DNA of 53,729 nt from a virus (IMGVR_UViG_3300044266_000287:1-53729), one strand, 5' to 3'; positions 7,042-52,059 are shown, counted from the stretch's first letter. Numbers and translations are program-made. The notes: generated by a model from the letters alone, not told the origin.

Positions 7042-7848
7042 ATGGGTATTTTTGCAAGATTAGGTTACTCTGGTAATACGCAATTTAATGGTGCGGACCA
7101 ACTCACGCCTGGCGTTATAAACCTATTAAACAATCAACCACAAAATTTAAAACAATGGCAAATCAATGATATTGCCAATGCTTCTGCCACAGGATACTAT
7201 CAGAATCCACATAATAATAATTTAGGTGCTCTTGCTGTGTTTGTTACTGGAATTATAGGTCTATCAAACACTACAACCTATAATTATAATGTTAATTCAT
7301 CATCTGCAAATACAATGGGTTCTGCTGCGTCTAATGCACAATCAGCTTTGACCAGTTTTACAACTCATACAAACAATTTATCTGGAGTTACCAATTCTTC
7401 AGATAGTTCTTTATATCCTGATTTAAATTCTGCTCTAAACATCGGCCGTCAGGTTTTAAATATAACAAATCAATCTGATGGTATACAGAATAATATTCCT
7501 ATTATTGGTAACTTTAGTAGTCTGTATATTGGAAATACATTAACAACTCTCACCAATGCAATTGCAAACGATTTCATTACATTAAGTCAATCAATTGGTG
7601 TGGATATGTCTGGTAATTTAACCAGTAATATATCAAACTCTGCAATGAATACTATTACAACAGATTTGACCAATTTGCAGACCACACTCAGTACACAACA
7701 AAATGCTGATATTTCTTTTTACCAGAATTCGTATGGTGTAGCAAAAGATTATACAACAACAACACAATTTAATAACTTGGGTGCAACTCAGAATAATTTG
7801 ATTACTTTAATTGGTACAACTAAACTTAAAACGGATTTGGCGTCATGA
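7042..7848 (+). CDS. Hypothetical virion-associated protein (Asn/Ser/Thr-rich, helical)
   Basis: Long ORF tightly coupled to both neighbours; no family recognised. Confidence 0.6.
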   Translation: MGIFARLGYSGNTQFNGADQLTPGVINLLNNQPQNLKQWQINDIANASATGYYQNPHNNNLGALAVFVTGIIGLSNTTTYNYNVNSSSANTMGSAASNAQSALTSFTTHTNNLSGVTNSSDSSLYPDLNSALNIGRQVLNITNQSDGIQNNIPIIGNFSSLYIGNTLTTLTNAIANDFITLSQSIGVDMSGNLTSNISNSAMNTITTDLTNLQTTLSTQQNADISFYQNSYGVAKDYTTTTQFNNLGATQNNLITLIGTTKLKTDLAS

Positions 7849-9857
7849 ACTATTCAATTTCCGTACCATTTTCAGCAATACAATTAGTCACACAATATGG
7901 TGCCAATGTTATTGTCGTTGGTTCAAGTGTAGTTTTACCTGACGGATCTACTGTTACATCGTCTTATGGTACAACTTCATACCCTCCAGATTTTGCTTAC
8001 AACCAAGCCAATGCGGCAACTTCATTAGCACAGGCTGCATATTCATATGCAAACACAATTTCTGGTGGTTCCGCTATTGATAATGTGGCAAGAACGTCTG
8101 CACAAACTGCTTTTGTATTGGCTAATACAGCAATAAACTATATTAATTCTAATAATGCATATTTTCAAACTGGTTACAATACTGCAAATACAGGATATAA
8201 TAATACATTATATTTACAAGGTGTTGACAATACTCAAAACAATGCCATTAATATTATTCAAGGTGTTGATACTTATCAAAATAATCAAATAACCTCACTC
8301 ACTACTTTTACACAAGCAGCCTTTAATACTGCTAATGCAAGTTCGCCTGCTGCAATACAAGCATCCTTCAATACTGCTAATGCCGCTTTTATACAAGCAA
8401 ATAATGCTTCATCAAATACAATATATTTACAAGGTGCTTTGGCCTCAGAAAATGCCAATTCAACTTTATTATTCACATATATTAATCAAGCCAATGCTAA
8501 CATTGGATTACTTCAATCTTATGTCACTCAATCAAATGCTAACATAAGTTTATTACAAGCTTATTCAAGTCAGGCTAACGCCAATATAGCTTTACTTCAG
8601 GCTTATGTAAATCAAAGTAATGCTAATATCAGTTTGTTGCAATCTTATTCTAACCAAGCTAACGCCAATATCGCTTTATTACAAACATATGCAAATCAAT
8701 CTAATGCAAATGTTGGATTGTTACAAACATACGCCAATCAGTCAAATGCTAACATAAGCTTACTTCAGGCTTATTCCAATCAAGCCAATGCTAATATTGT
8801 TTCATTACAAACGTATTCTAATCAAGCTAATGCTAATATAAGTTTACTACAAGCATATGCGAATCAGTCCAATGCCAATATAAGTTTATTACAAGCTTAT
8901 TCAAGTCAGGCTAACGCCAATATAGCTTTATTACAATCATATTCAAACCAAGCCAATGCCAATATTGTTTCATTATATTCTTATTCTGGTGCAGCATTTG
9001 CCAAAGCAAACAGTTCGTTGCAATTAAGTGGAACAACACAAACTGTAAGTAGTAACGTCACCATTCAAGGCAACTTATCAGTAACAGGTAATGTTTCTTA
9101 TACTGGTAACGTAACTACAATTCAAATTACTGGAAATACCGGTCAATTCTTTGGTTATACGGCGAATGGTTTTAATGCACTCTATGCTGGTATTCCTACT
9201 GGTTATTTTATTGAACCACAGATGGTCTATCAAATCACCAGTAATTATAATGGTTATACTGGTGGCATTAACATGCAGAATATTAATTCTGGTGCCAATG
9301 CCTCGGCGGATTTATTCATTACAGCAGACAACGGAACAATTAATGATGGTTATCTCGACTTAGGACTTGGATCAAGTACATACAATTATCCTGGTTACAG
9401 TCTAATAGGAAAAAATGATGGTTATCTATTTGTGACTGGAAATACAACTACTGGTGGTGGTAATACAATTATTGGCACCGGATTAAATAATGATGTTATA
9501 TTTACTTTAGGTGGAATTAATACAATAAATGAAGTTGCTCGTTTTAAATATAATACTGGTTTAGTAGTAAAACAACCAATTACATTTGTAGATAATACTA
9601 CTCAAAACACAGCTGCATCACCTGCATCATATTCTCAAGCAGCTTTTGCACAGGCCAATACTGCGCCAAGATATGTAAGTAGTTCAACTGCACCAGTAAG
9701 TCCAAGAGTTAATGACATGTGGTATGATACTGACAATGATGTTCTGCTTCGTTATACTAATGATGGCACTTCAAACAATTGGATAGATATTACAGGTCCA
9801 ATTTTTAGGTCTACTTTCATTAGACCAACATATCAAGTAACTGCTAACGTATCATAA
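7845..9857 (+). CDS. Fibre/adaptor protein: coiled-coil stalk, beta domain and C-terminal 'AP.SP..NDMWYD' module
   Basis: 12 Q[AS]NANxxLLQxYxN repeats; ~180-aa domain shared with 37499..39817; C-terminus paralogous to 35345..36202. Confidence 0.7.
   Translation: MNYSISVPFSAIQLVTQYGANVIVVGSSVVLPDGSTVTSSYGTTSYPPDFAYNQANAATSLAQAAYSYANTISGGSAIDNVARTSAQTAFVLANTAINYINSNNAYFQTGYNTANTGYNNTLYLQGVDNTQNNAINIIQGVDTYQNNQITSLTTFTQAAFNTANASSPAAIQASFNTANAAFIQANNASSNTIYLQGALASENANSTLLFTYINQANANIGLLQSYVTQSNANISLLQAYSSQANANIALLQAYVNQSNANISLLQSYSNQANANIALLQTYANQSNANVGLLQTYANQSNANISLLQAYSNQANANIVSLQTYSNQANANISLLQAYANQSNANISLLQAYSSQANANIALLQSYSNQANANIVSLYSYSGAAFAKANSSLQLSGTTQTVSSNVTIQGNLSVTGNVSYTGNVTTIQITGNTGQFFGYTANGFNALYAGIPTGYFIEPQMVYQITSNYNGYTGGINMQNINSGANASADLFITADNGTINDGYLDLGLGSSTYNYPGYSLIGKNDGYLFVTGNTTTGGGNTIIGTGLNNDVIFTLGGINTINEVARFKYNTGLVVKQPITFVDNTTQNTAASPASYSQAAFAQANTAPRYVSSSTAPVSPRVNDMWYDTDNDVLLRYTNDGTSNNWIDITGPIFRSTFIRPTYQVTANVS
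8485..8985 (+). repeat. Coding tandem repeat, 42-bp unit x12 (QANANISLLQAYSN-like)
   Basis: 12 Q[AS]NAN units counted in the translation; boundaries approximate. Confidence 0.9.
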
Positions 9858-9866
9858 GGATTAAAA

Positions 9867-10979
9867 ATGTCAGTTAATGAAGGGAATACAATACAATACA
9901 CAGTAGCTACTACTAAAGTTACTGATGGTACAACTTTGTATTGGAGAACTACAGGTAATGTAAATTATGGTCTTTGTGGTGCTTCTCAAATTTCTGGAAG
10001 TAACAATGGTACTATTGTTGTTACAAACAACCAAGGTGTGTTTAATGTTAGTTTAAATTTAAATCATTTTACTGACAACACAAGAACTTTAGGTATTGGA
10101 TTATCATCTACTCAATGGGGACCAATTATTGGTGCAACAGCACAATCAATTACTATTAATGATACATCTAGAAGTTCATATTCTATAGCTTATGCAGTAA
10201 TTGGCGGAGGAGGATCTCCAGGAACAGGAAATATTTACGGTGGCGGTGGTGCTGGAGGTGTAGTTACGGGTACGGCAACAGTCAATAGTAATTTAACTTA
10301 TACAATTACTGTTGGTGGCGGTGGCGCAAGCGCAGGTTCTCCAGGAAATTCAAGTGTATTAACCGGTCCCACTCCTTCGCCATTCAGTCCTGTTACTGCT
10401 TATGGTGGTGGAGGAGGAGGTAATGGTAATCCAACTACCGCACCAGGTGCCACCGGTAAAACTACTTGTGCTAGTGGTGGTGGTGGAGGCTATTATGTTC
10501 CTTCTCCCGGTACCGTAACGGCTGAACCTGGAGGAACAGCAGGACCACAAGGACATGCAGGGGGATATGGTGCAGCTTATTATAGTGCGACACCACCTAT
10601 AAGTCCTGTACAAAATTTTGCCGGAGGCGGAGGAGGTGGTGCTGGCGCTGCAGGAACCTCTGCAAGTTCATTACCAACTGCAGTTGGCGGATCGGGTGGA
10701 GCAGGAATAACTTGGCCTTATACTGGAGGAACTTATTATGCCGGAGGAGCAGGAGGTTCAGCTAGTGGATTTCCTAGTCCCGCAACACAAGGTTCCGGTG
10801 GTTTAGGATATAATTATTATGGCGGAGGTAATTCTTATCAAGGCGCTGTACTTTTAGCTATTCCCACTTCAAATTATCCTGGAAATCCTGCATACGCTCC
10901 TTTCGCAAGCGTTAATCCGCCAGCAGCACCAGGTTATACAATATTACTTTATTCGAGTTCTGGTACATACACCGCTTAA
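9867..10979 (+). CDS. Gly-rich adhesin-like protein with N-terminal Ig/Calx-beta-like domain
   Basis: N-terminal 'SVNEG.T..YTV.T....DGT.LYW...I.INDTS'; one module 'VIGGGG...GGGGAGG...YTITVGGGG...YYAGG...LAIP...SSGTYTA'. Confidence 0.7.
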   Translation: MSVNEGNTIQYTVATTKVTDGTTLYWRTTGNVNYGLCGASQISGSNNGTIVVTNNQGVFNVSLNLNHFTDNTRTLGIGLSSTQWGPIIGATAQSITINDTSRSSYSIAYAVIGGGGSPGTGNIYGGGGAGGVVTGTATVNSNLTYTITVGGGGASAGSPGNSSVLTGPTPSPFSPVTAYGGGGGGNGNPTTAPGATGKTTCASGGGGGYYVPSPGTVTAEPGGTAGPQGHAGGYGAAYYSATPPISPVQNFAGGGGGGAGAAGTSASSLPTAVGGSGGAGITWPYTGGTYYAGGAGGSASGFPSPATQGSGGLGYNYYGGGNSYQGAVLLAIPTSNYPGNPAYAPFASVNPPAAPGYTILLYSSSGTYTA

Positions 10980-10990: not shown

Positions 10991-11731
10991 ATGGCATTTC
11001 CAACTTCACCTGCAAATAATCAATTTGCTATCGTCAACGGCATAGAGTATGTATGGAATGCTACCAAAGGTGCGTGGTACCGTTATGGCGATGCTACCGT
11101 TAATATAATTACAGCAAATACTTTTCAACCATTAAGTAATATTGTTTTTTCTGATTCTTCAATACAAACTTCTGCTTACAACACCAGTTTACAAATATAT
11201 TTCTCAAATACAACAGGATCATCATCATATACAACTGGTGCAATTACTATTAATGGTGGAGTTGGTATTTCTGGAAACATTTATTCCGGTGGAATTATTT
11301 CTTCTAGTGGAAATATTATTTCTAGTGGAAACATATATTCCAATGGAATATCTTCAAACACAATTGTGTCCGCATCAAATATAGCAAATAATTCTGTTGG
11401 TTATTTGGGATTACCACAAAATATAGTATCATTAAATTATACCTTAGTTATTACCGATTCAGGTAAACACATTTATATGACACAATCGGCCAACACAGGT
11501 AATTTGACTATTCCACAGAATTCATCAGTTCCATTTCCTGTTGGAACAATTATCACTTTAGTAAATTCACCATCTTATTCATCTAATATTGTTAATACAG
11601 GAACGGCAACTTTATATGTTGTTGCAAATTCTACTCCTAGAACAAGTATACAAATTGGAAGTTTTGGTATCGCATCTTTAATTAAAATTGCATCAGATAC
11701 TTGGTATGTGTCCGGTTCAGGAATAACTTAA
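10991..11731 (+). CDS. Short fibre/adaptor protein
   Basis: N-terminal 'MAFPTSP.N.Q..IVNG..Y.W' module; 'GG.GISGN' repeats; C-terminal 'YTL..TD.GK...TIP.N.SV.FP.GT...LIK...DTW...G' domain seen at phage fibre tips. Confidence 0.65.
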   Translation: MAFPTSPANNQFAIVNGIEYVWNATKGAWYRYGDATVNIITANTFQPLSNIVFSDSSIQTSAYNTSLQIYFSNTTGSSSYTTGAITINGGVGISGNIYSGGIISSSGNIISSGNIYSNGISSNTIVSASNIANNSVGYLGLPQNIVSLNYTLVITDSGKHIYMTQSANTGNLTIPQNSSVPFPVGTIITLVNSPSYSSNIVNTGTATLYVVANSTPRTSIQIGSFGIASLIKIASDTWYVSGSGIT

Positions 11732-12705
11732 TGGGTCATTTTTTTGTTTTTAATCCTTCTTCGAGCACAACTTCACCACCAGGTGCAACATATACGCTTA
11801 ATTATTTAATAGTGGCTGGTGGAGGCGCAGGAAATCCAACTTCCTTAGGAGGATTTTTTGGAGGTGGTGGAGGTGCTGGGGGATTTATTTGTTCTTGTCT
11901 AACGGTCACAACTGGAGTACCATATGTAATTACTGTTGGATCCGGAGGTAGTGTAAGTGCTTACCCAATTGCAAGTAGTTCAAATGGAACTTCTTCAAGT
12001 ATTTCTGCACCATCTGTACCAAGTTTTACTGTTAGATCCGCAGTAGGTGGTGGTCATGGAGCTACTGGGAGTGCTACTGGTGGTGCAGGTGCTACGGGTG
12101 GATCGGGCGGTGGCGGTACAGGTTATCAATGTAGTCCTCCTGCATGTAATTCACATTTAGGTTTAGCGGTAGGAAGTCCTGGCCAAGGGGTTGCAGGTAC
12201 ACAAGGATATCCTGGCGGATCAGGAAATCCAAGTAGTTCCGGTGGAGGAGGAGGAGCCGGAGGATCAGGAGGAACTGGTTGTTTTAGAGGCGGTAATGGT
12301 GGACTAGCAAAAATTTGGACATATACTGGACTTTATTATGCGGGTGGTGGTGGAGGAGGCGCATATTATCCTACTGCACCAATATCACCACAAAAATTTG
12401 GTTACGGTGGCGGACAACCTCCAGCCAGTCCTTCACTTAAAGGTGGTGGAGGTGACGGCAGTAGTCCTACATGTAGACCCGGCAAAGCGGGTACTCCTGG
12501 TACCGGGGGTGGAGGTGGTGGTGCAAATTACGGAACATCTCCAAGAAGTTGTGGAGGCAACGGCGGAAGTGGTGTAGTTATTTTAGCTGTGCCTACTGCA
12601 AATTATCCCGGATCGGCTCCTGGTGCTACAGTAACTTGTGCTCCTCCATCATATCCAGGATTTAAATTAATAACGTATACTTCTTCAGGCAATTATATTG
12701 CTTAA
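11731..12705 (+). CDS. Gly-rich adhesin-like protein (one module)
   Basis: Start at the TAATG overlap (ATG 11731) is more plausible than 11701; 'YLIVAGGG...GGGGAGG...YYAGGGGG...VILAVP...YPGSAPG...SSGNYIA'. Confidence 0.7.
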   Translation: MGHFFVFNPSSSTTSPPGATYTLNYLIVAGGGAGNPTSLGGFFGGGGGAGGFICSCLTVTTGVPYVITVGSGGSVSAYPIASSSNGTSSSISAPSVPSFTVRSAVGGGHGATGSATGGAGATGGSGGGGTGYQCSPPACNSHLGLAVGSPGQGVAGTQGYPGGSGNPSSSGGGGGAGGSGGTGCFRGGNGGLAKIWTYTGLYYAGGGGGGAYYPTAPISPQKFGYGGGQPPASPSLKGGGGDGSSPTCRPGKAGTPGTGGGGGGANYGTSPRSCGGNGGSGVVILAVPTANYPGSAPGATVTCAPPSYPGFKLITYTSSGNYIA

Positions 12706-15284: not shown

Positions 15285-18131
15285 ATGTTACTAAGTAACC
15301 AAAAAACTTCTTTACAAGTACCTTTTCAACTTCCTGCGTACATTCGGGATGATCCCAACTATGCCAATTTTGTATTGTTTTTACAGGCATATTATGAATG
15401 GTTGGAACAACAAGATAATGTTACCGATGTTAGCAAGAATTTATTAAACTATAAAGATATTGATTCTTTAGAATCCGCCAATGTTGCATTGAGTGGTTCT
15501 AGTGCCGTTGTTGAACAGTTTATAGATTACTTTGAAAATGATTTTCTTTCTTACTTTCCAACCAATATTTTAGCAAATCAAACGGAAGTAATTAAGTTAG
15601 CAAAACAATTATATCAATCTAAAGGTACACCTGCTTCCTATAAATTTCTTTTTAGAATTCTTTATAATAGTGATGTTGACTTTTTCAACACCAAAGATGC
15701 AGTATTAAAGGCATCGTCAGGTACATGGTACATACCAAAGAATTTAAATGTTGGTTCAGTTGACGCAACTCAACTTCAATATTGGAGTAATCTTGCTGGT
15801 TTAAAAATTGTAGGTTTAACATCAAAAGCAATTGCTGTTATTGAAAATACAGTTATTACACCATCACAAGGAGTTGAAGTATTTCTTACTGAACTTGATA
15901 GAGATTTTGAATCAGGTGAGACTGTTAATATTATTGATAAAAATAATCAATTTGTTTATGATCCTAATAATAATCAATTTCAAGGACAAATTGTTGGTCA
16001 ATTAGGCCAAATTGCTATTAATCCTAATTACCGAGGACTGTATTATAAAGTAGGTGATCCAGTAGTTGTTTATGGTGGTTTATTTTTCTCTGGTTCTGCT
16101 CCTGCTACAGCTCAGGTATCTGGAATTTCTCAAGGTTCTATACAATCAATTAATGTGTTGCAAGGTGGTTACGGTTATACCGCAAACCCTAATACTACTA
16201 TCAATTTGACAAATGCACCTGGTGCTTCTGCTGCAGTTGCTTCATTGAATCCAGCAAATTCTGGCATTAGTGTTGTTGCATTATTACCAACAGATGCTCT
16301 ATTGTATGTAAATGCAGGTCAAGGACCTACGATTGGCAACACAACATATTCTTTCTTTGCAAACAATTCAACTGCAAATGCTAATACATCTTTAGCAAAT
16401 ACTTTTTCGTTTACTTCTTTTACCACTTACCCAATATCAGCAGTTGGATTAGTGGCGGCAGGTTCAGGTATTACTCAACAACCTACTGTTACTGCCACTT
16501 CAGGTTATCAAACAACCAATTCTGCTGTTGTTGCAGACTTATCTGATATGGGTATATTGGCACCAATTCAGATTATTAATCCTGGTTTAGGTTATCACGC
16601 CAATGATATTATTACAATTACGGGTGGTTCAGGTTATGGTGCACACGCCAATGTATTGAGTGTTAATGCTAATGGTGCTATTACAAGTGTAGGTTACACA
16701 TACTCTCCATTACACTATACACCTTTACATCATTCTTTGGGTGGAATGGGTTATCGACCAGACCAATTACCTACTGTAACAATTACTACATCAAATACCT
16801 CACCTGCCACATTATCTGTACCTGGAATATTAGGTACAGGAGCTACTTTCTATACTACAACAGACCGTGCGGGTGCTGTTTCTCAAATTCAAGTTACCTA
16901 TGGTGGCACCGAATACATTGCTACACCAAACGTATCGTTGACTGTACAAGACTTGTTGGTAACAGGAATTTCTGCTGCATCATTACCTAAATCTGGTGCA
17001 ACGATTTATCAGGGAACAAATTACTCAACTGCAACTTACAAAGCACAAGTATCTTCAGTTACAGCTTATACATTATCTTTGGATCCTTTAAAATCTGTAT
17101 ACACAATGCGAGTGTATAATTATAGTGCTCAACCAAGTACCACAACACAGGTAAAAGTATTGGGCACAAGTACAGTATTCAACATAGCAAGTTCTTTACC
17201 TAATAGTGTCACCACTTACGGTGATGGTACGGCACAGGCTACTGCAACATTCTTAAATGGTTTGAATGTTGGTAAAGGTCAATACTTAGATAATTCAGGT
17301 CAGTTAAGTTCTTATGATGTTCTACAAAGTACCGAATATAATAATTACACTTATGAAATTACATTAGAAAAAGAAATTTCTGCGTATAAGAAGATTCTAC
17401 TAAATTTATTGCATCCATCTGGTACTCAAGTATTAGGTCGTTACAAGATGACCTCAAGCAATACATTTAATAGTTTTGCTGCTGATGCGTTTGAAGGAGG
17501 ACATAACTTATCTTTCTATACTGGTACAACCAATACTTTGGCCAATGTTCAAGCCAATTTTGTCAATCAAAGTAACAATATTATTACATTCACCAATTTG
17601 TATGGTGCCAATTTAGCTTCATTTATAAACACTAATAGTAGTATACTATTAACAACATCCAATGGATTTACAATTGCTTCTTTGGTGGCCAATGTAAATT
17701 ACACCTCCAATACGGTTACTTTGGTGGACAATACTTGGTTGACCTTTGCAAATGTTGCTTATGTGACTGCCAATGCTGGTTCAAACGTAATAAATATAAA
17801 CACATTGACTGGTTCCTACGATATTATCAATAATGGTCAATATAGCAATACTGCTTATCCATTATATGACATCGTGTATGCTGGTGACAAAGTTCAAGTT
17901 AACAACCAAATTGCTGTAGTTTCTAGTATTGATTATCCTAATGGTAGGATTAAACTAGCGAACACATTGACATACGGAATTTCAAATGGATTCATGTCAG
18001 TCAATAGAACAGTCAGCACAGATAATGTAAAAATATATGGACCTTTAGGAACACAATATTTCCCTGAGATTTTAACAGAAGATGGAAGAATAATTTTAAC
18101 AGAAGATGGAAACATTCTCTTACTAGGATAA
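15285..18131 (+). CDS. gp7: Baseplate wedge initiator
   Basis: 'Q.P.YI......F..FL.AYYEW', 'Y.SKGT..S...LFR.LY', 'LQ...YN...Y...Y......LLHPSG'; position after gp6. Confidence 0.8.
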   Translation: MLLSNQKTSLQVPFQLPAYIRDDPNYANFVLFLQAYYEWLEQQDNVTDVSKNLLNYKDIDSLESANVALSGSSAVVEQFIDYFENDFLSYFPTNILANQTEVIKLAKQLYQSKGTPASYKFLFRILYNSDVDFFNTKDAVLKASSGTWYIPKNLNVGSVDATQLQYWSNLAGLKIVGLTSKAIAVIENTVITPSQGVEVFLTELDRDFESGETVNIIDKNNQFVYDPNNNQFQGQIVGQLGQIAINPNYRGLYYKVGDPVVVYGGLFFSGSAPATAQVSGISQGSIQSINVLQGGYGYTANPNTTINLTNAPGASAAVASLNPANSGISVVALLPTDALLYVNAGQGPTIGNTTYSFFANNSTANANTSLANTFSFTSFTTYPISAVGLVAAGSGITQQPTVTATSGYQTTNSAVVADLSDMGILAPIQIINPGLGYHANDIITITGGSGYGAHANVLSVNANGAITSVGYTYSPLHYTPLHHSLGGMGYRPDQLPTVTITTSNTSPATLSVPGILGTGATFYTTTDRAGAVSQIQVTYGGTEYIATPNVSLTVQDLLVTGISAASLPKSGATIYQGTNYSTATYKAQVSSVTAYTLSLDPLKSVYTMRVYNYSAQPSTTTQVKVLGTSTVFNIASSLPNSVTTYGDGTAQATATFLNGLNVGKGQYLDNSGQLSSYDVLQSTEYNNYTYEITLEKEISAYKKILLNLLHPSGTQVLGRYKMTSSNTFNSFAADAFEGGHNLSFYTGTTNTLANVQANFVNQSNNIITFTNLYGANLASFINTNSSILLTTSNGFTIASLVANVNYTSNTVTLVDNTWLTFANVAYVTANAGSNVININTLTGSYDIINNGQYSNTAYPLYDIVYAGDKVQVNNQIAVVSSIDYPNGRIKLANTLTYGISNGFMSVNRTVSTDNVKIYGPLGTQYFPEILTEDGRIILTEDGNILLLG

Positions 18132-36202: not shown

Positions 36203-36211
36203 GGATTAAGA

Positions 36212-37468: not shown

Positions 37469-37474
37469 TAAATA
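37467..37474 (+). promoter_or_regulatory. Putative late promoter (AATAAATA) overlapping stop codon
   Basis: ACGGCT-TAA-TAAATA, same context as 42279 and 45703. Confidence 0.6.
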
Positions 37475-37498
37475 TAAAATAATCTTAGGACCGTTTAC

Positions 37499-39817: not shown

Positions 39818-39818
39818 A

Positions 39819-42280: not shown

Positions 42281-42286
42281 TAAATA
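42279..42286 (+). promoter_or_regulatory. Putative late promoter (AATAAATA) overlapping stop codon
   Basis: ACGGCT-TAA-TAAATA upstream of the 50-aa ORF. Confidence 0.6.
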
Positions 42287-42306
42287 GTCTATAAACGGAG
42301 AAAAAA

Positions 42307-42459
42307 GTGGCCTTTCCAACAACACCAACCAACGGACAAGTAGCAGTAATAGACGGCATTAGTTATGTCTATTCCACCACAACCAATAGTTGGACAAGAA
42401 ATGTCACTATACTATCTGTTACACCAACACTCAGTCCCTTTTTATTAATGGGTGCTTAA
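42307..42459 (+). CDS. 50-aa minimal adaptor protein (below ORF-track cutoff)
   Basis: GGAG SD plus GTG start; MAFPTTPTNGQVAVIDGISYVYSTTTNSWTRNVTTISVTPTLSPFLLMGA; N-terminal 31 aa homologous to the N-termini of 10991 and 37499; fills the gap. Confidence 0.85.
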   Translation: MAFPTTPTNGQVAVIDGISYVYSTTTNSWTRNVTILSVTPTLSPFLLMGA

Positions 42460-42468
42460 GGAAATTAT

Positions 42469-42798
42469 ATGGGAATTGCATACAAAGTCTTAGGACAAGC
42501 CAATCCAACTGCCAACACAAATACAACCTTGTATACGGTACCTTCACTTACTAATACTGTAGTTAGTACCATTACTATTTGTAATCAAGCAAATACTCCT
42601 GCTTGGTTTAATATTGCTGTTCAACCTGCTGGCGCTTCATTAGTTTCTAAAAATTATATCAATTATAATACTCCTGTTCCAGGAAATGATACAATCTCTT
42701 TAACACTTGGTATTACTTTAGGAAACACCGATATTGTTTCTTGTAATGCCAATACCAGCACAGTAAGTTTCAACGTATTTGGTAGTGAGATTAGTTAA
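42469..42798 (+). CDS. Small beta-sandwich linker protein
   Basis: TAAGGA SD; 'YKVLGQ..P.A.T.T.LYTVP.....VVSTI.ICN...YI.Y......D......GITL..TD......SF..FG.EIS'; same size, slot and C-terminal E.IS-like ending as 39819..40172. Confidence 0.7.
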   Translation: MGIAYKVLGQANPTANTNTTLYTVPSLTNTVVSTITICNQANTPAWFNIAVQPAGASLVSKNYINYNTPVPGNDTISLTLGITLGNTDIVSCNANTSTVSFNVFGSEIS

Positions 42799-45704
42799 TG
42801 TCTACTAAAACTTTGAGCCAAAATAAGGCAAGTAAAGCTAGTGTATTATTTGGAGAAACCATTACTCTTGGTGGTACTGGTGGCACAACAAATCTTCCTG
42901 CTATATCAAATGTTGTAGTTGCAAATTCAAGTTACGCTAATATTTCTTCCGGCATAAGTTCTACAGGAAGTTATGTTAAAGTGTATGGTACCAATTTTCA
43001 AGCAAATACTGTTGTTACAGTTAACGCTAATACCGTACCATCATTAAATGTTACTTACTTCAGTTCAACACAATTAAATGTTGCTTTACCTACTATTGCT
43101 AATACTAATTATGTAACTTTTGGTGTAGCTAATCCTATATCGAGTGCAACAATAGTATCTACTGGAATTACTGTACAATATCTTGTAATTGCTGCTGGTG
43201 GAGGTGGTGGTACTTTTGGTGGCGGTGGCGGTGGCGCAGGAGGAGTTACAACAGGAAATTTCGTTACGGTTGCAAATACAACCTACACAATTCAAATAGG
43301 ATCAGGTGGAACTGGATCCACATCATATAATCCAGCTGCTTCCGGAACAAGTGGTTTTAGTAGTAACGTTACTAGTAGTTCACCAACCTTTTCTACTATC
43401 ACAACAATTGGCGGTGGCGGAGGAGGTTCTGGAGATGCTGCTGCCAGTCCAAACGCTACTGTTGGTAGTCCTGGAGGTTCTGGAGGTGGAGGCGGTGGCC
43501 GTTTAATTAAATCGGGAGGCACAGGAACACCAGGACAAGGAAATAGTGGTGGCAATTCGATGCCAGGAGATACGGCAGGGTATTACGCTGGAGGAGGCGG
43601 TGGTGGTGCAAAATGTGCCGGAACATCAGGCGTACAAGGACAAGCTGGTTCTGGTGGTGCAGGTTATACTTGGTCCTACACCGCAAACACTTATGCTGGA
43701 GGTGGTGGAGGGGGCGCATATCAAGGTACCGCAGGCACCGGTGGATCTGGTGGTGGAGGACCAGGAGGTTCTACTGCATTAATAACTGGAACAGCAGGAA
43801 CATCAGGAACAGGTAGTGGTGGTGGTTCTGGAGGTGGAGGACCACCATCAACACCAGGAACAGCTTCTGGTGGTGGAGGAGGATCAGGAGTTGTTGCTTT
43901 TGCAATTCCCACTGCATGTGTTCCCTCAGTTTCATATAGTGGTGCAATTGCTACTACTCCACCAGCAGCACCCGGTATGACTGTGTTAACTTGGAACTCA
44001 AGTGGATCATTTATCACAAAACCCCCTGTTGTTGCACAATACCTTATAGTTTCTGGTGGTGGTGGAGGAGGAATGGCTATTGGTGGCGGAGGTGGTGCTG
44101 GAGGATTATTAACGGGCACATCAAACTTTGCAAGATGTTCTAATTATACTATTAGTGTTGGTGCGGGCGGAGCTGGAGCAACCGTTCGTTCAGTAGCTGG
44201 AACAAATGGATTTAGTAGTAATATTTCTGGAATTTCAGTATCATCAGGACTTGGTGGTGGCGGTGGCGGAAGTAATAATAGCGGCGCTGGTCCAGGTAAT
44301 GCTGGTGCATCCGGAGGTGGTGGAGCAGGATCATTTCCAACAATCAGTACAGGAGGTCCAGCAACAAATTATCCAGGTCCATTAGCACAAGGTTATCCTG
44401 GTGGTTCAGCTTCCGGTTTTGCAGGTGGTGGCGGTGGAGGTTCGGCCGGAGCTGGAGTTGCCTCACCATCTGTTCAATCTTCCGGAACACCATCTGGTTC
44501 TGGTGGTGCAGGTTATACTTGGTCCTACACCGCAAACACTTATGCAAGTGGTGGGACAGGTGGTGCTGGTCCTGGTGGCACCACTACGGCTACACCCGGT
44601 GGCGGAGGTGCAGGTAGTAGTAGCGATTCAACTGCTAGTGCAGGCACAACAAATACTGGTGGTGGAGGTGGTGGTGGAGGATATGTTAGTAATGGAGGAC
44701 AAGGCGGTCCAGGCGGTTCAGGCATTGTTGCTTTAGCAATACCAACCGCATGTGTACCAGCAGTTCAATATCCAGGTGCTGTAGCGACAACACCTCCTGC
44801 AGCACCAGGTATGACAGTATTGACCTGGAATTCAAGTGGATCATTTAAAACATATGCTGCAGTACCATATTCAATACAATACTTAGTGGTTGCTGGAGGT
44901 GGTGGTGGTGCAGGTTTTGGTGATGGCGGTGGTGGCGGTGGTGGCGGTTTATTACATGGATGCACACCGTTGACAGCTGGTTCAGTATATACTATTACTA
45001 TTGGTAGTGGTGGTGTTGGAGGAGGTAATCCTCCTGGAAATCCATGTAATAGCGGACTTCGTGGATCGGTATCCAGTATTATGTTAGGTCCAACAAATAT
45101 AGTTACTACAGTTGGCGGTGGCGGCGGAATTTCTTCAACTACAACCTATGGTCCAGGTGGATCAGGCGGCGGTGGTGGACGTAATACTCCAACTCGTGCG
45201 GGCGGCACAGGAACACCCGGTCAAGGCAACACCGGCGGAACTGGCGGCGGTTCTGGTGCTGGCGGAGGTGGCGGAGGTGGCGCCGGTGGAGCTGGTGGAT
45301 CACCTGGAACTTGCGCTGGACCTGGTGGCGCAGGATACGCTTGGCCTTATTTAAGTGCGGCTCAACCAACCGGCATTGGTGCTTTTGCTGGAGGCGGAGG
45401 TGCCGGTGGAGATCCTGCAGCTCCTGGCGGACATGCAGGAACAGGAGGTCCACTCGGTCCAAGTGGAGCGGGACCAGGGAGTTATAGAATATGTGGAAGT
45501 GTTGCTATAGTTAATAGTGGTTCTGGTGGTGGCGGTGGCGGTAGTTGTGGAAATGGTGGTGCTGGTGGATCCGGTATAATTATTCTAGCAGTTCCAACTC
45601 CATCTTATCCGGGTTCGGCTCCAGGTGCCACAGTAACTACACCACCTGCTGCGCCAGGCATGACAGTATTAACATATACTTCATCTGGCACCTACACGGC
45701 TTAA
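42798..45704 (+). CDS. Gly-rich adhesin-like protein: IPT/TIG-like domain plus three Gly-rich modules
   Basis: N-terminal domain paralogous to 40172; three 'QYL...GGG...A.PT...PPAAPGMTVLT' modules. Confidence 0.7.
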   Translation: MSTKTLSQNKASKASVLFGETITLGGTGGTTNLPAISNVVVANSSYANISSGISSTGSYVKVYGTNFQANTVVTVNANTVPSLNVTYFSSTQLNVALPTIANTNYVTFGVANPISSATIVSTGITVQYLVIAAGGGGGTFGGGGGGAGGVTTGNFVTVANTTYTIQIGSGGTGSTSYNPAASGTSGFSSNVTSSSPTFSTITTIGGGGGGSGDAAASPNATVGSPGGSGGGGGGRLIKSGGTGTPGQGNSGGNSMPGDTAGYYAGGGGGGAKCAGTSGVQGQAGSGGAGYTWSYTANTYAGGGGGGAYQGTAGTGGSGGGGPGGSTALITGTAGTSGTGSGGGSGGGGPPSTPGTASGGGGGSGVVAFAIPTACVPSVSYSGAIATTPPAAPGMTVLTWNSSGSFITKPPVVAQYLIVSGGGGGGMAIGGGGGAGGLLTGTSNFARCSNYTISVGAGGAGATVRSVAGTNGFSSNISGISVSSGLGGGGGGSNNSGAGPGNAGASGGGGAGSFPTISTGGPATNYPGPLAQGYPGGSASGFAGGGGGGSAGAGVASPSVQSSGTPSGSGGAGYTWSYTANTYASGGTGGAGPGGTTTATPGGGGAGSSSDSTASAGTTNTGGGGGGGGYVSNGGQGGPGGSGIVALAIPTACVPAVQYPGAVATTPPAAPGMTVLTWNSSGSFKTYAAVPYSIQYLVVAGGGGGAGFGDGGGGGGGGLLHGCTPLTAGSVYTITIGSGGVGGGNPPGNPCNSGLRGSVSSIMLGPTNIVTTVGGGGGISSTTTYGPGGSGGGGGRNTPTRAGGTGTPGQGNTGGTGGGSGAGGGGGGGAGGAGGSPGTCAGPGGAGYAWPYLSAAQPTGIGAFAGGGGAGGDPAAPGGHAGTGGPLGPSGAGPGSYRICGSVAIVNSGSGGGGGGSCGNGGAGGSGIIILAVPTPSYPGSAPGATVTTPPAAPGMTVLTYTSSGTYTA
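43645..43696 (+). repeat. 52-bp exact direct repeat (second copy at 44494-44545)
   Basis: ctggttctggtggtgcaggttatacttggtcctacaccgcaaacacttatgc in modules 1 and 2 of 42798..45704. Confidence 0.9.
44760..44847 (+). repeat. 88-bp exact direct repeat, copy 2
   Basis: Identical to 41348-41435. Confidence 0.9.
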
Positions 45705-45710
45705 TAAATA
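45703..45710 (+). promoter_or_regulatory. Putative late promoter (AATAAATA) overlapping stop codon
   Basis: ACGGCT-TAA-TAAATA, then TAAGGAG SD and GTG 45733. Confidence 0.6.
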
Positions 45711-45732
45711 CTTTCATTTAAGGAGAAATAAA

Positions 45733-46110
45733 GTGAGTCATTTTGCAAAAGTTGAAAATGGAATTGTAACACAAGTGATTGTTGCAGAACAAGAATTCAT
45801 TAATGGTGGTCATGTTGGTAATCCTAGTTTATGGATTCAAACATCTTACAATACTCGTGGAAATGTACACTACGCACCAAATAGTGCAAATACTGATGGT
45901 GGTGTGGCACTACGTGGTAATTATGCTGGAATTGGTTACATTTATGATTCAGGTCATGATGTATTCTATGCGCCAAAACCATTTAATTCTTGGACAATTT
46001 CTTCCAATACTTGGACATGGCAAGCACCAGTAGCAATGCCTACGGATGGTAAACCATATAGATGGGATGAAGCCAATACTAAATGGGATTTAGTTACAAT
46101 CCCAGCATAA
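45733..46110 (+). CDS. Trp-rich small phage protein accompanying Gly-rich genes (possible fibre assembly/attachment factor)
   Basis: Strong SD; 'HFA......V.QVIV', 'W.QTSYN', 'R.NYAGIG..YD...D.F..PKP..SW', 'W.APV..P.DG..Y.WDE'. Confidence 0.7.
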   Translation: MSHFAKVENGIVTQVIVAEQEFINGGHVGNPSLWIQTSYNTRGNVHYAPNSANTDGGVALRGNYAGIGYIYDSGHDVFYAPKPFNSWTISSNTWTWQAPVAMPTDGKPYRWDEANTKWDLVTIPA

Positions 46111-47667: not shown

Positions 47668-48669
47668 ATGGCAACCATTACCACAAGACAAGATTTTACA
47701 AGTTATTGCCTGCGTAGACTAGGTGCTCCGGTTATTGATATCAACGTGGATGATGACCAGGTGAATGACCGTATCGATGATGCACTACAATATTGGCAAG
47801 ATTACCATTTCGATGGTCTACAAAAAGTCTATTATATCAAATATGTAACTGGATCAACCTTGGTTGCGACTGCCAATGTTAGTTCATTCAGTAGCAACGC
47901 TGTTACTCTTATCGGAACAACATCAGGAGCCACAGCATCACTAACATCCGTAGCACCAGATAATGTTACCATGAGTGTTCAATGTGGCCAAGTGCCTTTT
48001 ATTGCAGGTGAAGGTATCAACTATATTGACAGAAGTGGTAATACTCATACTGGCGGTGTTGGTGTACAAAGCTTTGACTTTGGTGACGTAGATAAACGAT
48101 ATTTGGATTTAAGTGGTGCCACAGATGCACAAGGAAATCCAATGGAGATTGTTGGTATTTCTCGTATATTCCCAATCTCAGATTCTCAGGCAACTGTCAA
48201 TATGTTTGACCTTAGATATCAACTTCGTCTAAACGAACTCTACGACTTTACCTCCGCATCGTACATCAACTACACCTTAACACAACAACACTTACGTTCT
48301 CTGGAGATTATGTTTACTGGAGAAGTTCCTATTCGATTCCAAAGACATATGCAAAGATTGTATATTGACTGGAATTGGGGTAACTCAGAAGCACCAATTG
48401 GTACAGTTGTAGTTGCCGAATGTTATGCGGCAATTAATCCAGATGTTTACAATTTGGTATGGAATGACCGTTGGTTAAAAGAGTATGCTACTGCTCTCAT
48501 TAAGAGAACATGGGGAAATAACTTATCTAAATTTGCCGGTCTACAATTACCAGGTGGTGTAACACTTGATGGCAAAACAATTCAACAAGAAGCCGTTACT
48601 GAAATTGAAAGACTTGAAAAAGAAATGGAAATGAATTACGGTGCGCCGCTTGAATGGTTTCTCAATTAA
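47668..48669 (+). CDS. gp13: Neck protein
   Basis: 'YCLRRLGAPVIDINVDDDQ..DRIDDALQY...YHFDG', 'WLKEYATALIK..WG.NL.KF.G.QLPGGVT.DG'. Confidence 0.95.
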   Translation: MATITTRQDFTSYCLRRLGAPVIDINVDDDQVNDRIDDALQYWQDYHFDGLQKVYYIKYVTGSTLVATANVSSFSSNAVTLIGTTSGATASLTSVAPDNVTMSVQCGQVPFIAGEGINYIDRSGNTHTGGVGVQSFDFGDVDKRYLDLSGATDAQGNPMEIVGISRIFPISDSQATVNMFDLRYQLRLNELYDFTSASYINYTLTQQHLRSLEIMFTGEVPIRFQRHMQRLYIDWNWGNSEAPIGTVVVAECYAAINPDVYNLVWNDRWLKEYATALIKRTWGNNLSKFAGLQLPGGVTLDGKTIQQEAVTEIERLEKEMEMNYGAPLEWFLN

Positions 48670-48670
48670 A

Positions 48671-49213
48671 ATGTATCATAATCACCACATAATACCTAAA
48701 CATATGGGTGGGTCAAATGATCCATCAAATTTGATAAAATTAACAATAGAAGAACATGCAGAAGCACATCGTGTATTGTGGGAAAAGTATAAAAAAATTG
48801 AAGATTATTATGCTTGGCAGGGGCTTTTAGGTAATATGACTGGTTATGAAATATTAAAAGGTATAATGTGTTCGGAAAAAATGAGAAAACATCTTTCTGT
48901 TAAAAGCAAAGAATATTGGAATAATTTATCAGAAGAAGAAAAAAAAATAAGATTAGAAAAATTTAATTCATATAAAATTGGAAATAAACATACATTAGGT
49001 AAAACTTGGAAATTATCTGAAGAATCTAAAAAAAATGTTTCGGATTCTAAAAGTCAATATTGGTTGATAACATTTCCAGATGGGCATAAAGAAAAAATAA
49101 AAAATATGTTAGAATTTTGCAGACAAAATAAATTGGACCAAGGAGCCATGTCTAATGTTGCAAAAAAGAAAAACAAACATCACAAAAATTTTGTTTGTGA
49201 GAAAGTAAAATAA
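48671..49213 (+). CDS. Free-standing HNH homing endonuclease
   Basis: 'HHIIPKHMGGSNDPSNL..LT.EEH..AH..L' HNH core; basic NUMOD-like C-terminus; start ATG 48671; very A-rich relative to neighbours. Confidence 0.88.
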   Translation: MYHNHHIIPKHMGGSNDPSNLIKLTIEEHAEAHRVLWEKYKKIEDYYAWQGLLGNMTGYEILKGIMCSEKMRKHLSVKSKEYWNNLSEEEKKIRLEKFNSYKIGNKHTLGKTWKLSEESKKNVSDSKSQYWLITFPDGHKEKIKNMLEFCRQNKLDQGAMSNVAKKKNKHHKNFVCEKVK

Positions 49214-49214: not shown

Positions 49215-50093
49215 ATGGCAGTTTCACAATACTTCAACAATTACGGATCACTCAACGAACAAAGAGTGATTGAGGATATTATTGTAGAATCCATTAAGAT
49301 AATGGGTTTTGATTCCTATTACATTCCCAATAACAATGCGGTTGCTCGTGACTTGTTATATGGTGAAGATCCAGTTAAAAAATTTGGTACTGCTTATCCA
49401 TTAGAAATGTATCTTTCTAGTTCAATGGAATATTCAGGTGAAAGAGAATTCTTTTCTAAATTTGGTCTTGAAATTAAAAATAATGTTCAAGTTATTTTAT
49501 CTAAGCGTTCTTTCAGTCAACGAGTACCTAATACTATTTCAAGACCACAAGAAGGTGATTTAGTTTATATTCCGTTTTTAAATGGAACAGGTGAATTATT
49601 TGAAATTAAATTTACCAACCAAACAAAAGATTTCTTTATGTTGGGAAGAAAAGTTCCTTATTTCTATGAATTAGAAATGGAGAAATTCAAATTCTCAGAA
49701 GAAATTATTTCTACTGGTATTCCTAATATTGATGCTGTTGTTAGTGATTCAGCATATACATTACATTTGAATACTGGTTCAGGAGCAGGAGTATATGCAA
49801 CAAACGAACTTGTGTACCAATCAACAGACGGATCATATGCGAATGCTCATACTGTTGCTGTTGTTCAGTCCTGGATTCCTGCTACTAACATGTTGTCTGT
49901 GTCCAATATTGCCGGCGAGTTTATTGATGGTCAACAACTTATTGGCCAAACCAGCAACGCACAATACACATTAGTATCATTTGATCCATTATCAAATCCT
50001 GCAAACAAAGAAAATTATGATAATGAATATATTGCTAACAATGCAAGTTCTATTATTGATTTCTCTGAAACAAATCCTTTTGGTAACATATAA
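49215..50093 (+). CDS. gp14: Neck protein
   Basis: 'EQ..IED...ESIK..G.D..Y.P', 'GED...KF..AY..E.Y', 'FSKFGLEI', 'RP.EGDL.Y.P', 'DFSE.NPFG'. Confidence 0.95.
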   Translation: MAVSQYFNNYGSLNEQRVIEDIIVESIKIMGFDSYYIPNNNAVARDLLYGEDPVKKFGTAYPLEMYLSSSMEYSGEREFFSKFGLEIKNNVQVILSKRSFSQRVPNTISRPQEGDLVYIPFLNGTGELFEIKFTNQTKDFFMLGRKVPYFYELEMEKFKFSEEIISTGIPNIDAVVSDSAYTLHLNTGSGAGVYATNELVYQSTDGSYANAHTVAVVQSWIPATNMLSVSNIAGEFIDGQQLIGQTSNAQYTLVSFDPLSNPANKENYDNEYIANNASSIIDFSETNPFGNI

Positions 50094-51100
50094 TGGCCAA
50101 TACAACTTATAATCGTATCATTCGTAAACTTGTTATAGGTTTTGGTAACCTATTTGATGACATTACATTGGTTCGTTACAATCCAGATAATACTGAAGCA
50201 CAAAGATTTATTGTACCTATTGCTTATGCTGCCAAAGAATTATATGTACAACGCCTTGAAGGTGATCCCAATTTAGATAAAAAAGTTCAAATGACTTTAC
50301 CTCGTATGTCGTTTGAAATGAATGGACTAACATATGATGCCACAAGAAAACAAAACACCAACATTAAGCAATTTGCTTCAACTACTGGCGGTGTATTGGC
50401 TCAGTATAATCCTGTGCCTTATAATTTTGACTTTAATCTTTACATATATGTCCGTAATATTGAAGATGGAACCCAAATTATTGAACACATTCTTCCTTAC
50501 TTTACGCCAGACTATACAATCAAATTAAATTTGGTACCTGAAATGGGTATCGTTAAAGAAGTACCTATTATATTAAATTCAACTTCTTCTGAAGTAACAT
50601 ATGAAGGACCAAGAGATTCTGATCCTCGTATGATTATTTGGACTTTAAATTTTACCGTTAAAGGTTTTATATTTGGTCAAACATCAACAGCAGGATTAAT
50701 TAAAACATCTATTACAAATATTTTAAATGATATTGGTCCAAATGATACTGTTCAATTTAATATGGGTGCCACAGGTGTAGGTAAATATCAAATTGGTGAA
50801 AAAGTTTATCAAGGTTATACTATTGGTACTTCTATTGCAACTGCTACAGTAGTAAATTGGAATAGTAACAACTCATTATACTTGACAAACATTAATGGTA
50901 ATTTTGTTTCATCACAACCAATCATTGGTGCAACAACTAACGCAAATTATACTTTCAATTCATATCAAATACAACCATATAACTTTGCACAGATTGTTGT
51001 TACTCCTAATCCAGCAAACGCAAATGCGAACTCAATATATACATATAATACTTCTATAAAAGAAACTGCTAATATAGGAAATACTTACCCAACATCATGA
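50093..51100 (+). CDS. gp15: Tail sheath stabiliser / tail terminator
   Basis: 'IRK.VI.FG.LF.DI', 'VPIAY..K', 'LPRMSFE.....YD..RK', 'PVPYN..F.L', 'QIIE.ILPYFTP', 'WTL.FT.K'. Confidence 0.95.
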   Translation: MANTTYNRIIRKLVIGFGNLFDDITLVRYNPDNTEAQRFIVPIAYAAKELYVQRLEGDPNLDKKVQMTLPRMSFEMNGLTYDATRKQNTNIKQFASTTGGVLAQYNPVPYNFDFNLYIYVRNIEDGTQIIEHILPYFTPDYTIKLNLVPEMGIVKEVPIILNSTSSEVTYEGPRDSDPRMIIWTLNFTVKGFIFGQTSTAGLIKTSITNILNDIGPNDTVQFNMGATGVGKYQIGEKVYQGYTIGTSIATATVVNWNSNNSLYLTNINGNFVSSQPIIGATTNANYTFNSYQIQPYNFAQIVVTPNPANANANSIYTYNTSIKETANIGNTYPTS

Positions 51101-52059
51101 TAATTAATAATTTAACTATATCTGGATTGACTATAATTCCACCCCCACCACCTCCAATTGTAATACAATACTTGGTGGTTGCTGGTGGTGGCGGAGGTGA
51201 TGCTGCTGGTGGCGGAGGCGGAGGTGCAGGAGGATTATTAAATGGGTCGACAACACTTACTTCTGGTGTTAGTTATACAATTACTATTGGTGCTGGCGGA
51301 ACAGGACTTTGTGGTAAAAGTCGACAACCCTACTGTGTGGCAAGTCCCACATTTCCATCTGGTGGACAAAATGGCGCAAACACTAGTTTTTCTGGATCCG
51401 GTTTAACAACACTTACAGCTGTAGGTGGAGGAGGCGGCCTTGGAAATCCTTTATCATCGAGTATGCACGGCAATAATGGTGGTTCTGGTGGAGGTGGGCC
51501 TTTAGTATACGGCGGCGGTGCTGGATATAATTATCCAGGTCCAACACAACAAGGATATCCTGGAGGCAAATCATTTGTGTGTGCCGGTGGCGGAGGCGGA
51601 GGCGGTTATAGTTCAAGCGGCGGTTGTTATCGATCCAATGTTGGTGGTGGTAATGGTGGTAATGGATATACATGGCCATATACAACAAATACCTACGCTG
51701 GTGGCGGAGGCGGCGGTGGTATAACCAATGGGTCACATTCGTGTTTAGTTGGAGGAACAGGAGGACCTGGTGGTGGTGGAGCAGGCGCTCCGTCTACTTC
51801 TGCTGCAGCTAATCCAGGAACTCCAGGAACCTCAGGTACAGGTGGTGGTGGAGGAGGAGGAAATAATTATAATACTCCTGGAGCATTTGCTTGTGGATAT
51901 CGAGGTAATGGCGGAAATGGTGGAAGCGGCACATTTATTTTAGCAATACCAACTCCACAATATCCAGGTTCTGCTCCAGGGGCTACAGTAACAACACCAC
52001 CTGCAGCACCAGGTATGACAGTATTAACATACACATCATCTGGTACATATATAGCGTAA
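51097..52059 (+). CDS. Gly-rich adhesin-like protein (one module) between gp15 and gp16
   Basis: ATGA overlap with gp15; short N-terminal 'MIINNLTISGLTII' plus Pro6 linker; same module and C-terminus as the other Gly-rich genes. Confidence 0.7.
   Translation: MIINNLTISGLTIIPPPPPPIVIQYLVVAGGGGGDAAGGGGGGAGGLLNGSTTLTSGVSYTITIGAGGTGLCGKSRQPYCVASPTFPSGGQNGANTSFSGSGLTTLTAVGGGGGLGNPLSSSMHGNNGGSGGGGPLVYGGGAGYNYPGPTQQGYPGGKSFVCAGGGGGGGYSSSGGCYRSNVGGGNGGNGYTWPYTTNTYAGGGGGGGITNGSHSCLVGGTGGPGGGGAGAPSTSAAANPGTPGTSGTGGGGGGGNNYNTPGAFACGYRGNGGNGGSGTFILAIPTPQYPGSAPGATVTTPPAAPGMTVLTYTSSGTYIA

Follow-up and report, generated by a model that had tools for sequence, protein, structure and literature searches.

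The virus record IMGVR_UViG_3300044266_000287 (the whole IMG/VR entry, 53,729 bases, estimated 32% complete; hereafter the window) carries a series of gene cassettes of the tail-fibre type, most of which end in a glycine-rich gene resembling a phage fibre tip. Here we describe these cassettes and two conserved junctions by which separately encoded tips would be fixed to their shafts. Gene content identifies the window as part of the genome of a distant T4-like myovirus. Pfam searches with the window proteins found the gp15 sheath stabiliser (PF16724, E 6.7e-65), the T4 neck protein (PF11649) and both terminase subunits (PF03237 and PF11053). PHROGs matches added baseplate wedge, hub and tube cap proteins as well as a gp37-like distal fibre end beside a fibre-assembly protein or chaperone (30014–30358, phrog_3304), and genes for a T4-type neck, sheath stabiliser, baseplate wedge and hub, and terminase are all present. 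The gp15 homologue is at most ~46% identical to its cyanophage and pelagiphage counterparts, and a megablast of positions 35000–46000 found no close relative in deposited phage records. The guanine-cytosine content is 33–37% across the window and 44–49% over the glycine-rich genes.

The cassette genes are listed below with their predicted roles and the evidence used; genes are referred to by their first base, lengths are in amino acids (aa) or nucleotides (nt), ORF stands for open reading frame and pLDDT for the predicted local distance difference test.

7845–9857, + strand: fibre shaft, 670 aa, with ~12 copies of a 14-aa (42-nt) repeat and the C-terminus ...TYQVTANVS (ORF, repeats)
9867–10979, + strand: tip, 370 aa, with a ~100-aa Calx-beta/AGS_C-like N-domain from SVNEG, then one Gly_rich_2 (residues 103–326) (Pfam, locus comparison)
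10991–11731, + strand: adaptor, 246 aa, with an N-terminal FPxxP...W motif; its C-terminal part matches phrog_8780, minor tail protein (PHROGs, motif)
11731–12705, + strand: bare Gly_rich_2 protein, 324 aa from the ATG at 11731, no docking domain recognised (Pfam)
35345–36202, + strand: adaptor/shaft, 285 aa, with the FPxxP motif at its N-terminus, ~8 copies of the 14-aa repeat and the C-terminus ...QYTIAANVS (motif, repeats)
36212–37468, + strand: tip, 418 aa, with a split Calx-beta/AGS_C-like N-domain (starts SINEG) and one Gly_rich_2 (Pfam, locus comparison)
37499–39817, + strand: long shaft, 772 aa, with the FPxxP motif, 14-aa repeats and the hydrophobic tail ...AFSLIFGG (motif, repeats, BLASTP)
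39819–40172, + strand: small jelly-roll protein of a divergent subfamily, 117 aa from ATG (121 aa from TTG at 39807) (hhalign)
40172–42280, + strand: tip, 702 aa, with an IPT/TIG-like domain (sub-threshold) and two Gly_rich_2 (Pfam)
42307–42459, + strand: minimal adaptor, 50 aa, GTG start after GGAG, consisting of the FPxxP motif and the tail ...SPFLLMGA only (ORF, motif)
42469–42798, + strand: jelly-roll 'linker', 109 aa, eight strands, AlphaFold pLDDT 93.8, of a very large uncharacterised phage family (model, homologues)
42798–45704, + strand: tip, 968 aa, with an IPT/TIG-like domain (sub-threshold) and three Gly_rich_2 (Pfam)
45733–46110, + strand: 125-aa protein, phrog_7759, function unknown (PHROGs)
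51097–52059, + strand: stand-alone protein of 320 aa with one Gly_rich_2, its gene flanked by the gp15 homologue and the small terminase (Pfam, model with pLDDT 89.1)

Five of the six glycine-rich genes follow an adaptor, with or without an intervening linker. This order had been proposed in a preliminary description made from the sequence alone and is borne out by the genes as called, the adaptor at 42307 being the 50-aa ORF with a GTG start. The 42-nt tandem repeats of the shafts lie at 8484–8986, 35587–35931, 37916–38195 and 38681–38782 (12, 8, 6.7 and 2.4 copies); a related 42/84-nt array occurs at 30494–30709, inside the 30368 gene. All-against-all BLASTP resolved the cassettes into paralogous blocks, 7845/9867 with 35345/36212 and 37499/40172 with the cassette that ends in 42798. 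Such blocks are what plain tandem duplication would leave behind: the cassettes would be copies of one fibre-plus-tip pair or triplet, and the paired motifs at their gene ends would record shared ancestry with no docking specificity. Near-identical DNA at two of the junctions (see below) also fits this explanation. However, these junction modules recur in other contigs between unrelated shafts and tips, and the shafts 7845 and 37499, although 47% identical over ~680 aa (BLASTP), have different C-terminal ends, each matching its own downstream partner. We therefore regard duplication by itself as an unlikely account of the paired ends. Because the cassettes are paralogous blocks, the pairings within the window are not independent of one another, and they were therefore tested in other genomes. 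The earlier claim that the C-terminus of an adaptor predicts the next gene consequently divides in two: within the window the pattern amounts to cassette duplication, whereas two of the three proposed joints recur in other phage contigs with exchanged flanks.

All six glycine-rich genes match the Pfam family PF21722 (Gly_rich_2) with 31.1–119.4 bits against a gathering cut-off of 24.3 bits. The nine stretches above cut-off (one each in 9867, 11731, 36212 and 51097, two in 40172 and three in 42798) agree with the nine modules in six genes counted beforehand, and a six-frame search of the whole record yielded six Gly_rich_2 places. The modules are paralogous, with a mutual identity of 34–52% by all-against-all BLASTP. 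The 51097 protein was modelled with AlphaFold from an alignment of 73 sequences (pLDDT 89.1; predicted template modelling score, pTM, 0.89), and the strands of a TNF-like sandwich extend into a stacked glycine-rich lattice in this model. Its best structural match was the Bxb1 tail tip (9D93 chain Qa; Z 14.3, 189 residues aligned, 30% identity), followed by the Pam3 fibre (7YPX chain A; Z 12.1, 173 residues, 30% identity) and the glycine-rich domains of ALK (Z 5.3–5.8, 130–135 residues, 16–19% identity), the next-best structures among the matches listed reaching Z 3.6 or less. Foldseek agreed with this ranking (Bxb1 9D93, E 5.9e-5), and searches by sequence gave no PDB match for the module. The T-even adhesin gp38, to which the tips had initially been compared, was a comparison right in kind; the closest relatives known are Pam3 gp24 and the Bxb1 tail-tip chain. 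gp38 (e.g. PDB 6F45) was not among the matches listed (39 Foldseek and 50 VIA rows), an absence that does not exclude a relationship.

Because the predicted model matches the Pam3 and Bxb1 tip structures, we place the tips in a known class as new members: as modelled, the glycine-rich genes encode fibre-tip, receptor-binding-type domains of the polyglycine class, and they very likely bind host surface structures. Mycobacteriophage counterparts are termed 'brush' or polyglycine-rich domains in excerpts of two reports (PMC13243192, PMC13243795). A tblastn search of phage records with the glycine-rich protein gave no match, probably owing to the low-complexity filter; the corresponding locus search returned one locus, and that with a three-sequence alignment none. 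Among 8000 scored metagenomic candidates, 244 were homologous at E ≤ 1e-5, often with Ig-like (He_PIG, TIG) or laminin-G domains in front.

The first joint pairs a short hydrophobic C-terminal tail with a separately encoded protein of ~110 aa. As had been noted beforehand, the order hydrophobic tail, linker and IPT-like glycine-rich protein occurs twice in the window, with IPT/TIG matches of 19.3 and 18.8 bits (tips 40172 and 42798) that fall just under the Pfam cut-off of 20.9. A homologue of the 109-aa linker occurs in 49 viral contig loci, 41 of them distinct. In 38 of these 41, the upstream ORF ends in a hydrophobic tail (strict expression [FL][LM]L[MSG]G[AMG]) at a gap of −1 to 46 nt, compared with 45 of 2270 distinct six-frame ORFs in the loci as background, most of the 45 being these same upstream ORFs. 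The enrichment of adjacency across phage genomes that the preliminary description had named as its test was thus found for this joint. The tail-bearing ORFs range from 50 to 1193 aa with unrelated N-termini, and the proteins downstream of the linker homologues are glycine-rich in 19 loci and not glycine-rich in 18 (none in 4), so adjacency is conserved across genomes while the flanking modules are exchanged. Even the closest relative (L001), with an 80% identical jelly roll and the same tail, has a different 220-aa adaptor and a tip that is not glycine-rich.

The same arrangement is present in cultured phages. In the Pontimonas siphophage phiPsal1 (actinobacterial host), an 86-aa protein ending ...LMLMGG comes first, then a 111-aa jelly-roll protein annotated 'putative virion structural protein' and lastly a 298-aa glycine-rich ORF. 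This ORF (L052 7349–8245, record 15857–16753) lies directly behind the jelly-roll gene; GenBank places two 'hypothetical proteins' over it (022 and 023, 'no BlastP matches'), which look like wrong-frame calls. In the pelagiphage HTVC010P, the C-terminus of gp23 reads ...LAIALG and the next protein is gp24 ('virion structural protein' in the annotation), which the jelly-roll protein 39819 of the window resembles. Three paralogous proteins of ~205–217 aa ending ...KLYG[IV].. (HTVC010P gp30–gp32; L122 21026–22984) resemble the tips without glycine-rich modules downstream of jelly rolls (e.g. L008 and L017), which suggests, by sequence likeness, a second widespread tip family.

Scanning all the collected loci with a profile gave 63 distinct jelly-roll ORFs, of which 43 have a strict tail upstream and 14 more a variant hydrophobic tail, classed by eye. 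The variants are AF[AS]IALG (n = 3), YILALE[GS] (n = 6), ...MGA plus 1–2 residues (n = 3), ALAIALG in HTVC010P and AFSLIFGG in the window. Tail variants go with particular jelly-roll subfamilies, an association that fits orthogonal connectors; of the 'orthogonal plugs' in the preliminary description, it is this co-occurrence that stands, which is not binding. Cassettes are also found in series. In three loci (L013, L016 and L026) a variant-tail cassette precedes a strict-tail cassette, in L051 a jelly-roll joint precedes a split-domain joint, and the window itself runs 37499, 39819, 40172, 42307, 42469, 42798. A complex prediction for the 50-aa adaptor and the jelly roll (one copy each, controls not run) scored 0.00 against a mark of 0.32 and counts neither way. 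Given the genomic pairing, we put the docking of the hydrophobic tail on the jelly roll at even odds.

The 42469 protein is modelled as an eight-stranded jelly roll (pLDDT 93.8), in keeping with the small viral jelly-roll fold (eight strands, ~100–115 residues). Its best solved neighbours (VIA; Z 10.1–8.8 over 90–102 residues) are small oligomeric jelly rolls: nucleoplasmin-like HDT1 (Z 10.1), the KHP40 trimeric cement protein (Z 9.7), the HFTV1 turret protein (Z 9.4), and YomS and Ena (Z 8.8). These values are little above the typical best for unrelated models and therefore indicate fold class, not homology. The jelly-roll profile had no PDB match, and neither did Foldseek on PDB at E ≤ 0.001. 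In BFVD, the model matched many ~110-aa phage proteins as well as 'tail fiber-like' proteins from P-SSM2 and S-CAM1, in the latter at their N-terminal domain. The family comprises 5169 representative clusters at E ≤ 0.001 (2151 at E ≤ 1e-10). The two linkers of the window show no similarity by BLASTP (E 0.51), but a profile comparison relates them (hhalign probability 84%, E 7.5e-6, 77 columns). PHROGs matches were phrog_1276 (function unknown) and the N-terminal parts of 'tail fiber protein' families, and in fused forms the jelly roll is combined with Gly_rich_2, with IPT and RCC1, with LRR, or with a tandem duplicate of itself. It is N-terminal in 15 of 15 longer homologues examined and at a shaft end in 0 of 15; no clear fusion of shaft and jelly roll was seen among 15 + 8 longer proteins. 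In a single 141-aa protein (P0277), a hydrophobic stretch and a glycine run lie directly ahead of the jelly roll. Further variants (P0126, P0130, P0149, P0160, P0137, P0143, P0152 and P0157) are tandem doubles of ~215–240 aa or carry a 170–240-aa insert after the first strand.

A small gene adjoining fibre genes also recalls the known fibre chaperones, and the jelly-roll protein might be an assembly chaperone absent from the virion, with the hydrophobic tail as its recognition signal on the fibre. The window holds such a chaperone elsewhere (the phrog_3304 gene), and the nucleoplasmin-type jelly rolls among the best fold matches include chaperones. However, fused jelly rolls sit at the N-terminus of receptor-binding-type proteins, distant homologues carry the annotation of virion structural proteins, the gene lies upstream of the tip and not after it, and no chaperone family matched it in Pfam or PHROGs. 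We consider a chaperone role quite unlikely and favour a structural jelly roll at the joint between shaft and tip.

The second joint is a domain divided between two genes. Two gene pairs of the window share a junction, both read out in the sequence as the preliminary description had claimed: a gene ending ...ANVS, then TAAGGATTAA(A/G)AATG, then a gene starting MS[VI]NEG, the DNA being near-identical in both (TAA GGA TTA A(A/G)A ATG). A tblastn search with the ~100-aa N-domain of 9867 and 36212 retrieved 69 related loci, 57 of which were examined after 12 near-duplicates had been dropped. Seven of the 57 show the same split, in which the domain starts a gene and is preceded in frame by TAA, 9 nt and ATG; the upstream ORFs (313–662 aa) end ...Y.I[TS][AS]NV[SA], and the tips are glycine-rich in L054 and L057 and RCC1 propellers in L053, L055, L056, L058 and L059. 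In the remaining 50 loci the domain is internal and unsplit, and ~47 of these (counted by eye) have an aromatic-x-aliphatic strand 4–10 residues ahead of the NEG motif, the same as the C-terminal sequence of the window's shaft genes. One fused paralogue (L051 8390–10132) has both halves contiguous. Unsplit relatives match PF18134 AGS_C at 46.9 and 30.8 bits (cut-off 26.7) and Calx-beta at 25.8 bits, below the cut-off of 27. The window's own 100-aa N-domains had no Pfam match at E ≤ 0.1, and they therefore belong to Calx-beta/AGS_C by transitive similarity only. Judged by these alignments, the ANVS/NEG pair is one beta-sandwich cut after its first strand by a stop codon. Whether this split sandwich is completed in trans and so holds shaft and tip together is in our estimate evenly balanced.

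Stop-codon readthrough, suggested by the in-frame position of the two genes nine bases apart, was rejected as the simplest reading because the stop is TAA, the downstream gene brings its own ATG and an AAGGA resembling a Shine-Dalgarno sequence lies in the spacer. All seven split loci preserve the in-frame spacing, which descent from one fission would explain.

The junctions could alternatively act mainly as patches of DNA homology at which tips are swapped by recombination, and not as protein docking surfaces. Tips and shafts are exchanged exactly at the junctions, and the split junction has a conserved 15-nt DNA sequence; for the adhesin genes of T4-type phages, glycine-rich motifs have been proposed as sites of recombination. 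As protein, however, the tail and jelly roll are kept in the actinobacterial phage and the pelagiphage described above, whose DNA has no detectable similarity to the window. Docking would still be possible alongside recombination, and both can hold; as the main role of the junctions, homology patches seem improbable. We thus retain protein joints as the preferred explanation.

The proximal ends of the cassettes share a motif of their own. A loose regular expression for the FPxxP...W motif (~30 aa) matches exactly four + strand ORFs of at least 40 aa in the window (10991, 35345, 37499 and 42307), at residue 4–7 in all four, and these are just the adaptors for which a common N-terminal module had been claimed. 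Across the window and related loci, the motif stands at the N-terminus of 24 distinct plausible ORFs and is combined with hydrophobic tails, ANVS ends, a peptidase-S74-like end or directly with a glycine-rich tip. Since these genes usually come after a tip gene or after a ~120-aa gene behind the tip, the motif signals where a cassette begins. In fibre proteins, the end nearest the virion is typically recognised by a constant N-terminus in front of variable distal parts, and FPxxP...W is probably an attachment end of this kind, proximal to the virion or to the fibre; it may be the partner of the 'common socket' in the preliminary description. Docking could be on the baseplate, giving parallel fibres, or on the preceding tip, giving a chain. 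The third pairing of the preliminary description, a DTW...G domain followed by a bare module, is present in the window as a single case (10991 and 11731); no replicate was found in the related loci, where one C-terminus (L091) is loosely similar.

The phrog_7759 protein (~120–125 aa) directly follows tip genes in the window (45733–46110), in L051 (6438–6800) and in L052 (8245–8625), and comes after the jelly roll in L045–L048 (6338–6706). ESM Atlas returned unnamed viral clusters only. By its position it may be a fourth cassette member, e.g. an assembly factor.

Receptor-binding assemblies that are modular or branched, and polyglycine tips that are separate proteins, are already known. In the T4 long fibre (gp34-35-36-37) and the branched tailspikes of CBA120 and G7C, separate proteins are joined end to end or side by side through terminal docking domains that are conserved, and it is the distal specificity domains that vary. 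The joints of the window differ from these docking modules. Pam3 gp24 (PDB 7YPX/7YFW) shares with the window tips a TNF-like sandwich that passes into a glycine-rich lattice at the distal fibre end; it is, in contrast, one protein with an N-terminal helical shaft docking on the baseplate and a dedicated trimeric chaperone, whereas the window tips are separate proteins with up to three modules per chain and Ig-like or jelly-roll elements in front. Excerpts of the Pam3 report describe a four-layer lattice that recognises the receptor and resembles S16 gp38 and ALK (PMC9608196). A putative 'brush' chain of the Bxb1 tail tip (PDB 9D93 chains Qa/Qb) was the best structural match. Unlike the window phage, Bxb1 is a siphovirus of an actinobacterium, and we know of no jelly-roll or split-domain joint in it. 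Its brush protein gp33 is, according to PMC12646305, a separate polypeptide held by the wing arm gp31 on the wing base gp30, an adaptor-to-tip chain resembling the arrangement proposed for the window. The gp38 of T-even phages and S16 is likewise a separate polyglycine-rich adhesin, held non-covalently on the end of gp37 (excerpts of PMC9608196 and PMC13243192); it attaches by a small helical N-domain, unlike the window tips, and is described as monomeric (PMC12032242). Within the one literature collection searched, neither the hydrophobic-tail/jelly-roll joint nor the split Calx-beta-like joint was found described.

Taken as a whole, the data are best explained by a T4-like phage with an array of tail-fibre cassettes whose separate tips are fixed by two conserved joints, to which we assign a probability of about 0.6. 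The cassettes are encoded beside the baseplate and neck genes, and each first gene opens with the FPxxP...W motif, its probable proximal attachment end. The distal parts would be 'brush' receptor-binding domains, one, two or three per chain, in which a TNF-like sandwich runs into a polyglycine lattice; as separate polypeptides, they would be held on the shafts non-covalently. At the first joint, the hydrophobic tail (PFLLMGA type, variant AFSLIFGG) would dock on the ~110-aa jelly roll, which is an N-terminal tip domain in other phages and has here a gene of its own, translationally coupled to the tip gene. At the second, the last strand of the shaft (...TYxVTANVS) would serve as the first strand of the sandwich whose remainder (S[VI]NEG...LYW) opens the tip, i.e. 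strand complementation. The data show the domains, their families and predicted folds, the gene adjacency kept across genomes and the exchange of flanking modules; physical docking, strand complementation, stoichiometry and the location of the fibres on the virion are inferences.

Several points weigh against this interpretation. The presence of the jelly roll in virions is taken from annotations that others gave to distant homologues. The loci are related by descent, so the counts overstate the number of independent events; the seven split loci, in particular, probably go back to a single fission. Both the tail expression and the variant-tail classes were drawn up with the data already in view, 6 of the 63 jelly-roll ORFs have no upstream tail at all, and the N-domains and jelly rolls of the window lack a Pfam match. 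Furthermore, should jelly roll and tip be separated within a flexible linker, there is no obvious element to hold them together apart from a loosely conserved peptide at the N-terminus of the tips.

A wider version is more tentative, and we hold it to be possible though rather doubtful: aquatic phages of all three tail morphologies would share a hitherto undescribed tail/jelly-roll plug and socket, in which the hydrophobic C-termini of shafts or mini-adaptors fit matching subfamilies of a jelly-roll domain at the N-terminus of receptor-binding proteins, and several mutually orthogonal pairs together with the split joint would dictate the order of segments and tips, allowing serial or branched multi-tip fibres and the exchange of cassettes.

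Other genes of the window bear on where such fibres might be mounted. The gp15 homologue (50093–52059 region) has a C-terminal extension of ~120 aa past its Pfam domain (residues 5–215 matched), and its stop overlaps the start of the stand-alone glycine-rich gene 51097; a neck- or collar-mounted brush is conceivable. Between the baseplate wedge and the fibre genes lies a 2358-aa protein (21515–28591; phrog_358, E 1.2e-303, function unknown), a candidate hub carrying fibre sockets. A 190-aa ORF (48641–49213) between the 47668 gene and the neck-protein gene has a His-rich motif near its N-terminus and, by eye, looks like a putative HNH homing endonuclease.

The host range of phages is set by their receptor-binding tips and by how these are mounted. 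The present analysis reassigns a group of 'hypothetical' glycine-rich proteins to the Pam3/Bxb1 brush class. If the joints are real docking devices, a simple rule could tell from sequence which gene products belong to one assembly across the very large body of uncultured aquatic phage genomes. The joints would also account for the many fibre genes arrayed in myoviruses of the cyanophage and pelagiphage kind, and laboratory phage work would gain small, portable connectors with which receptor-binding domains could be swapped.

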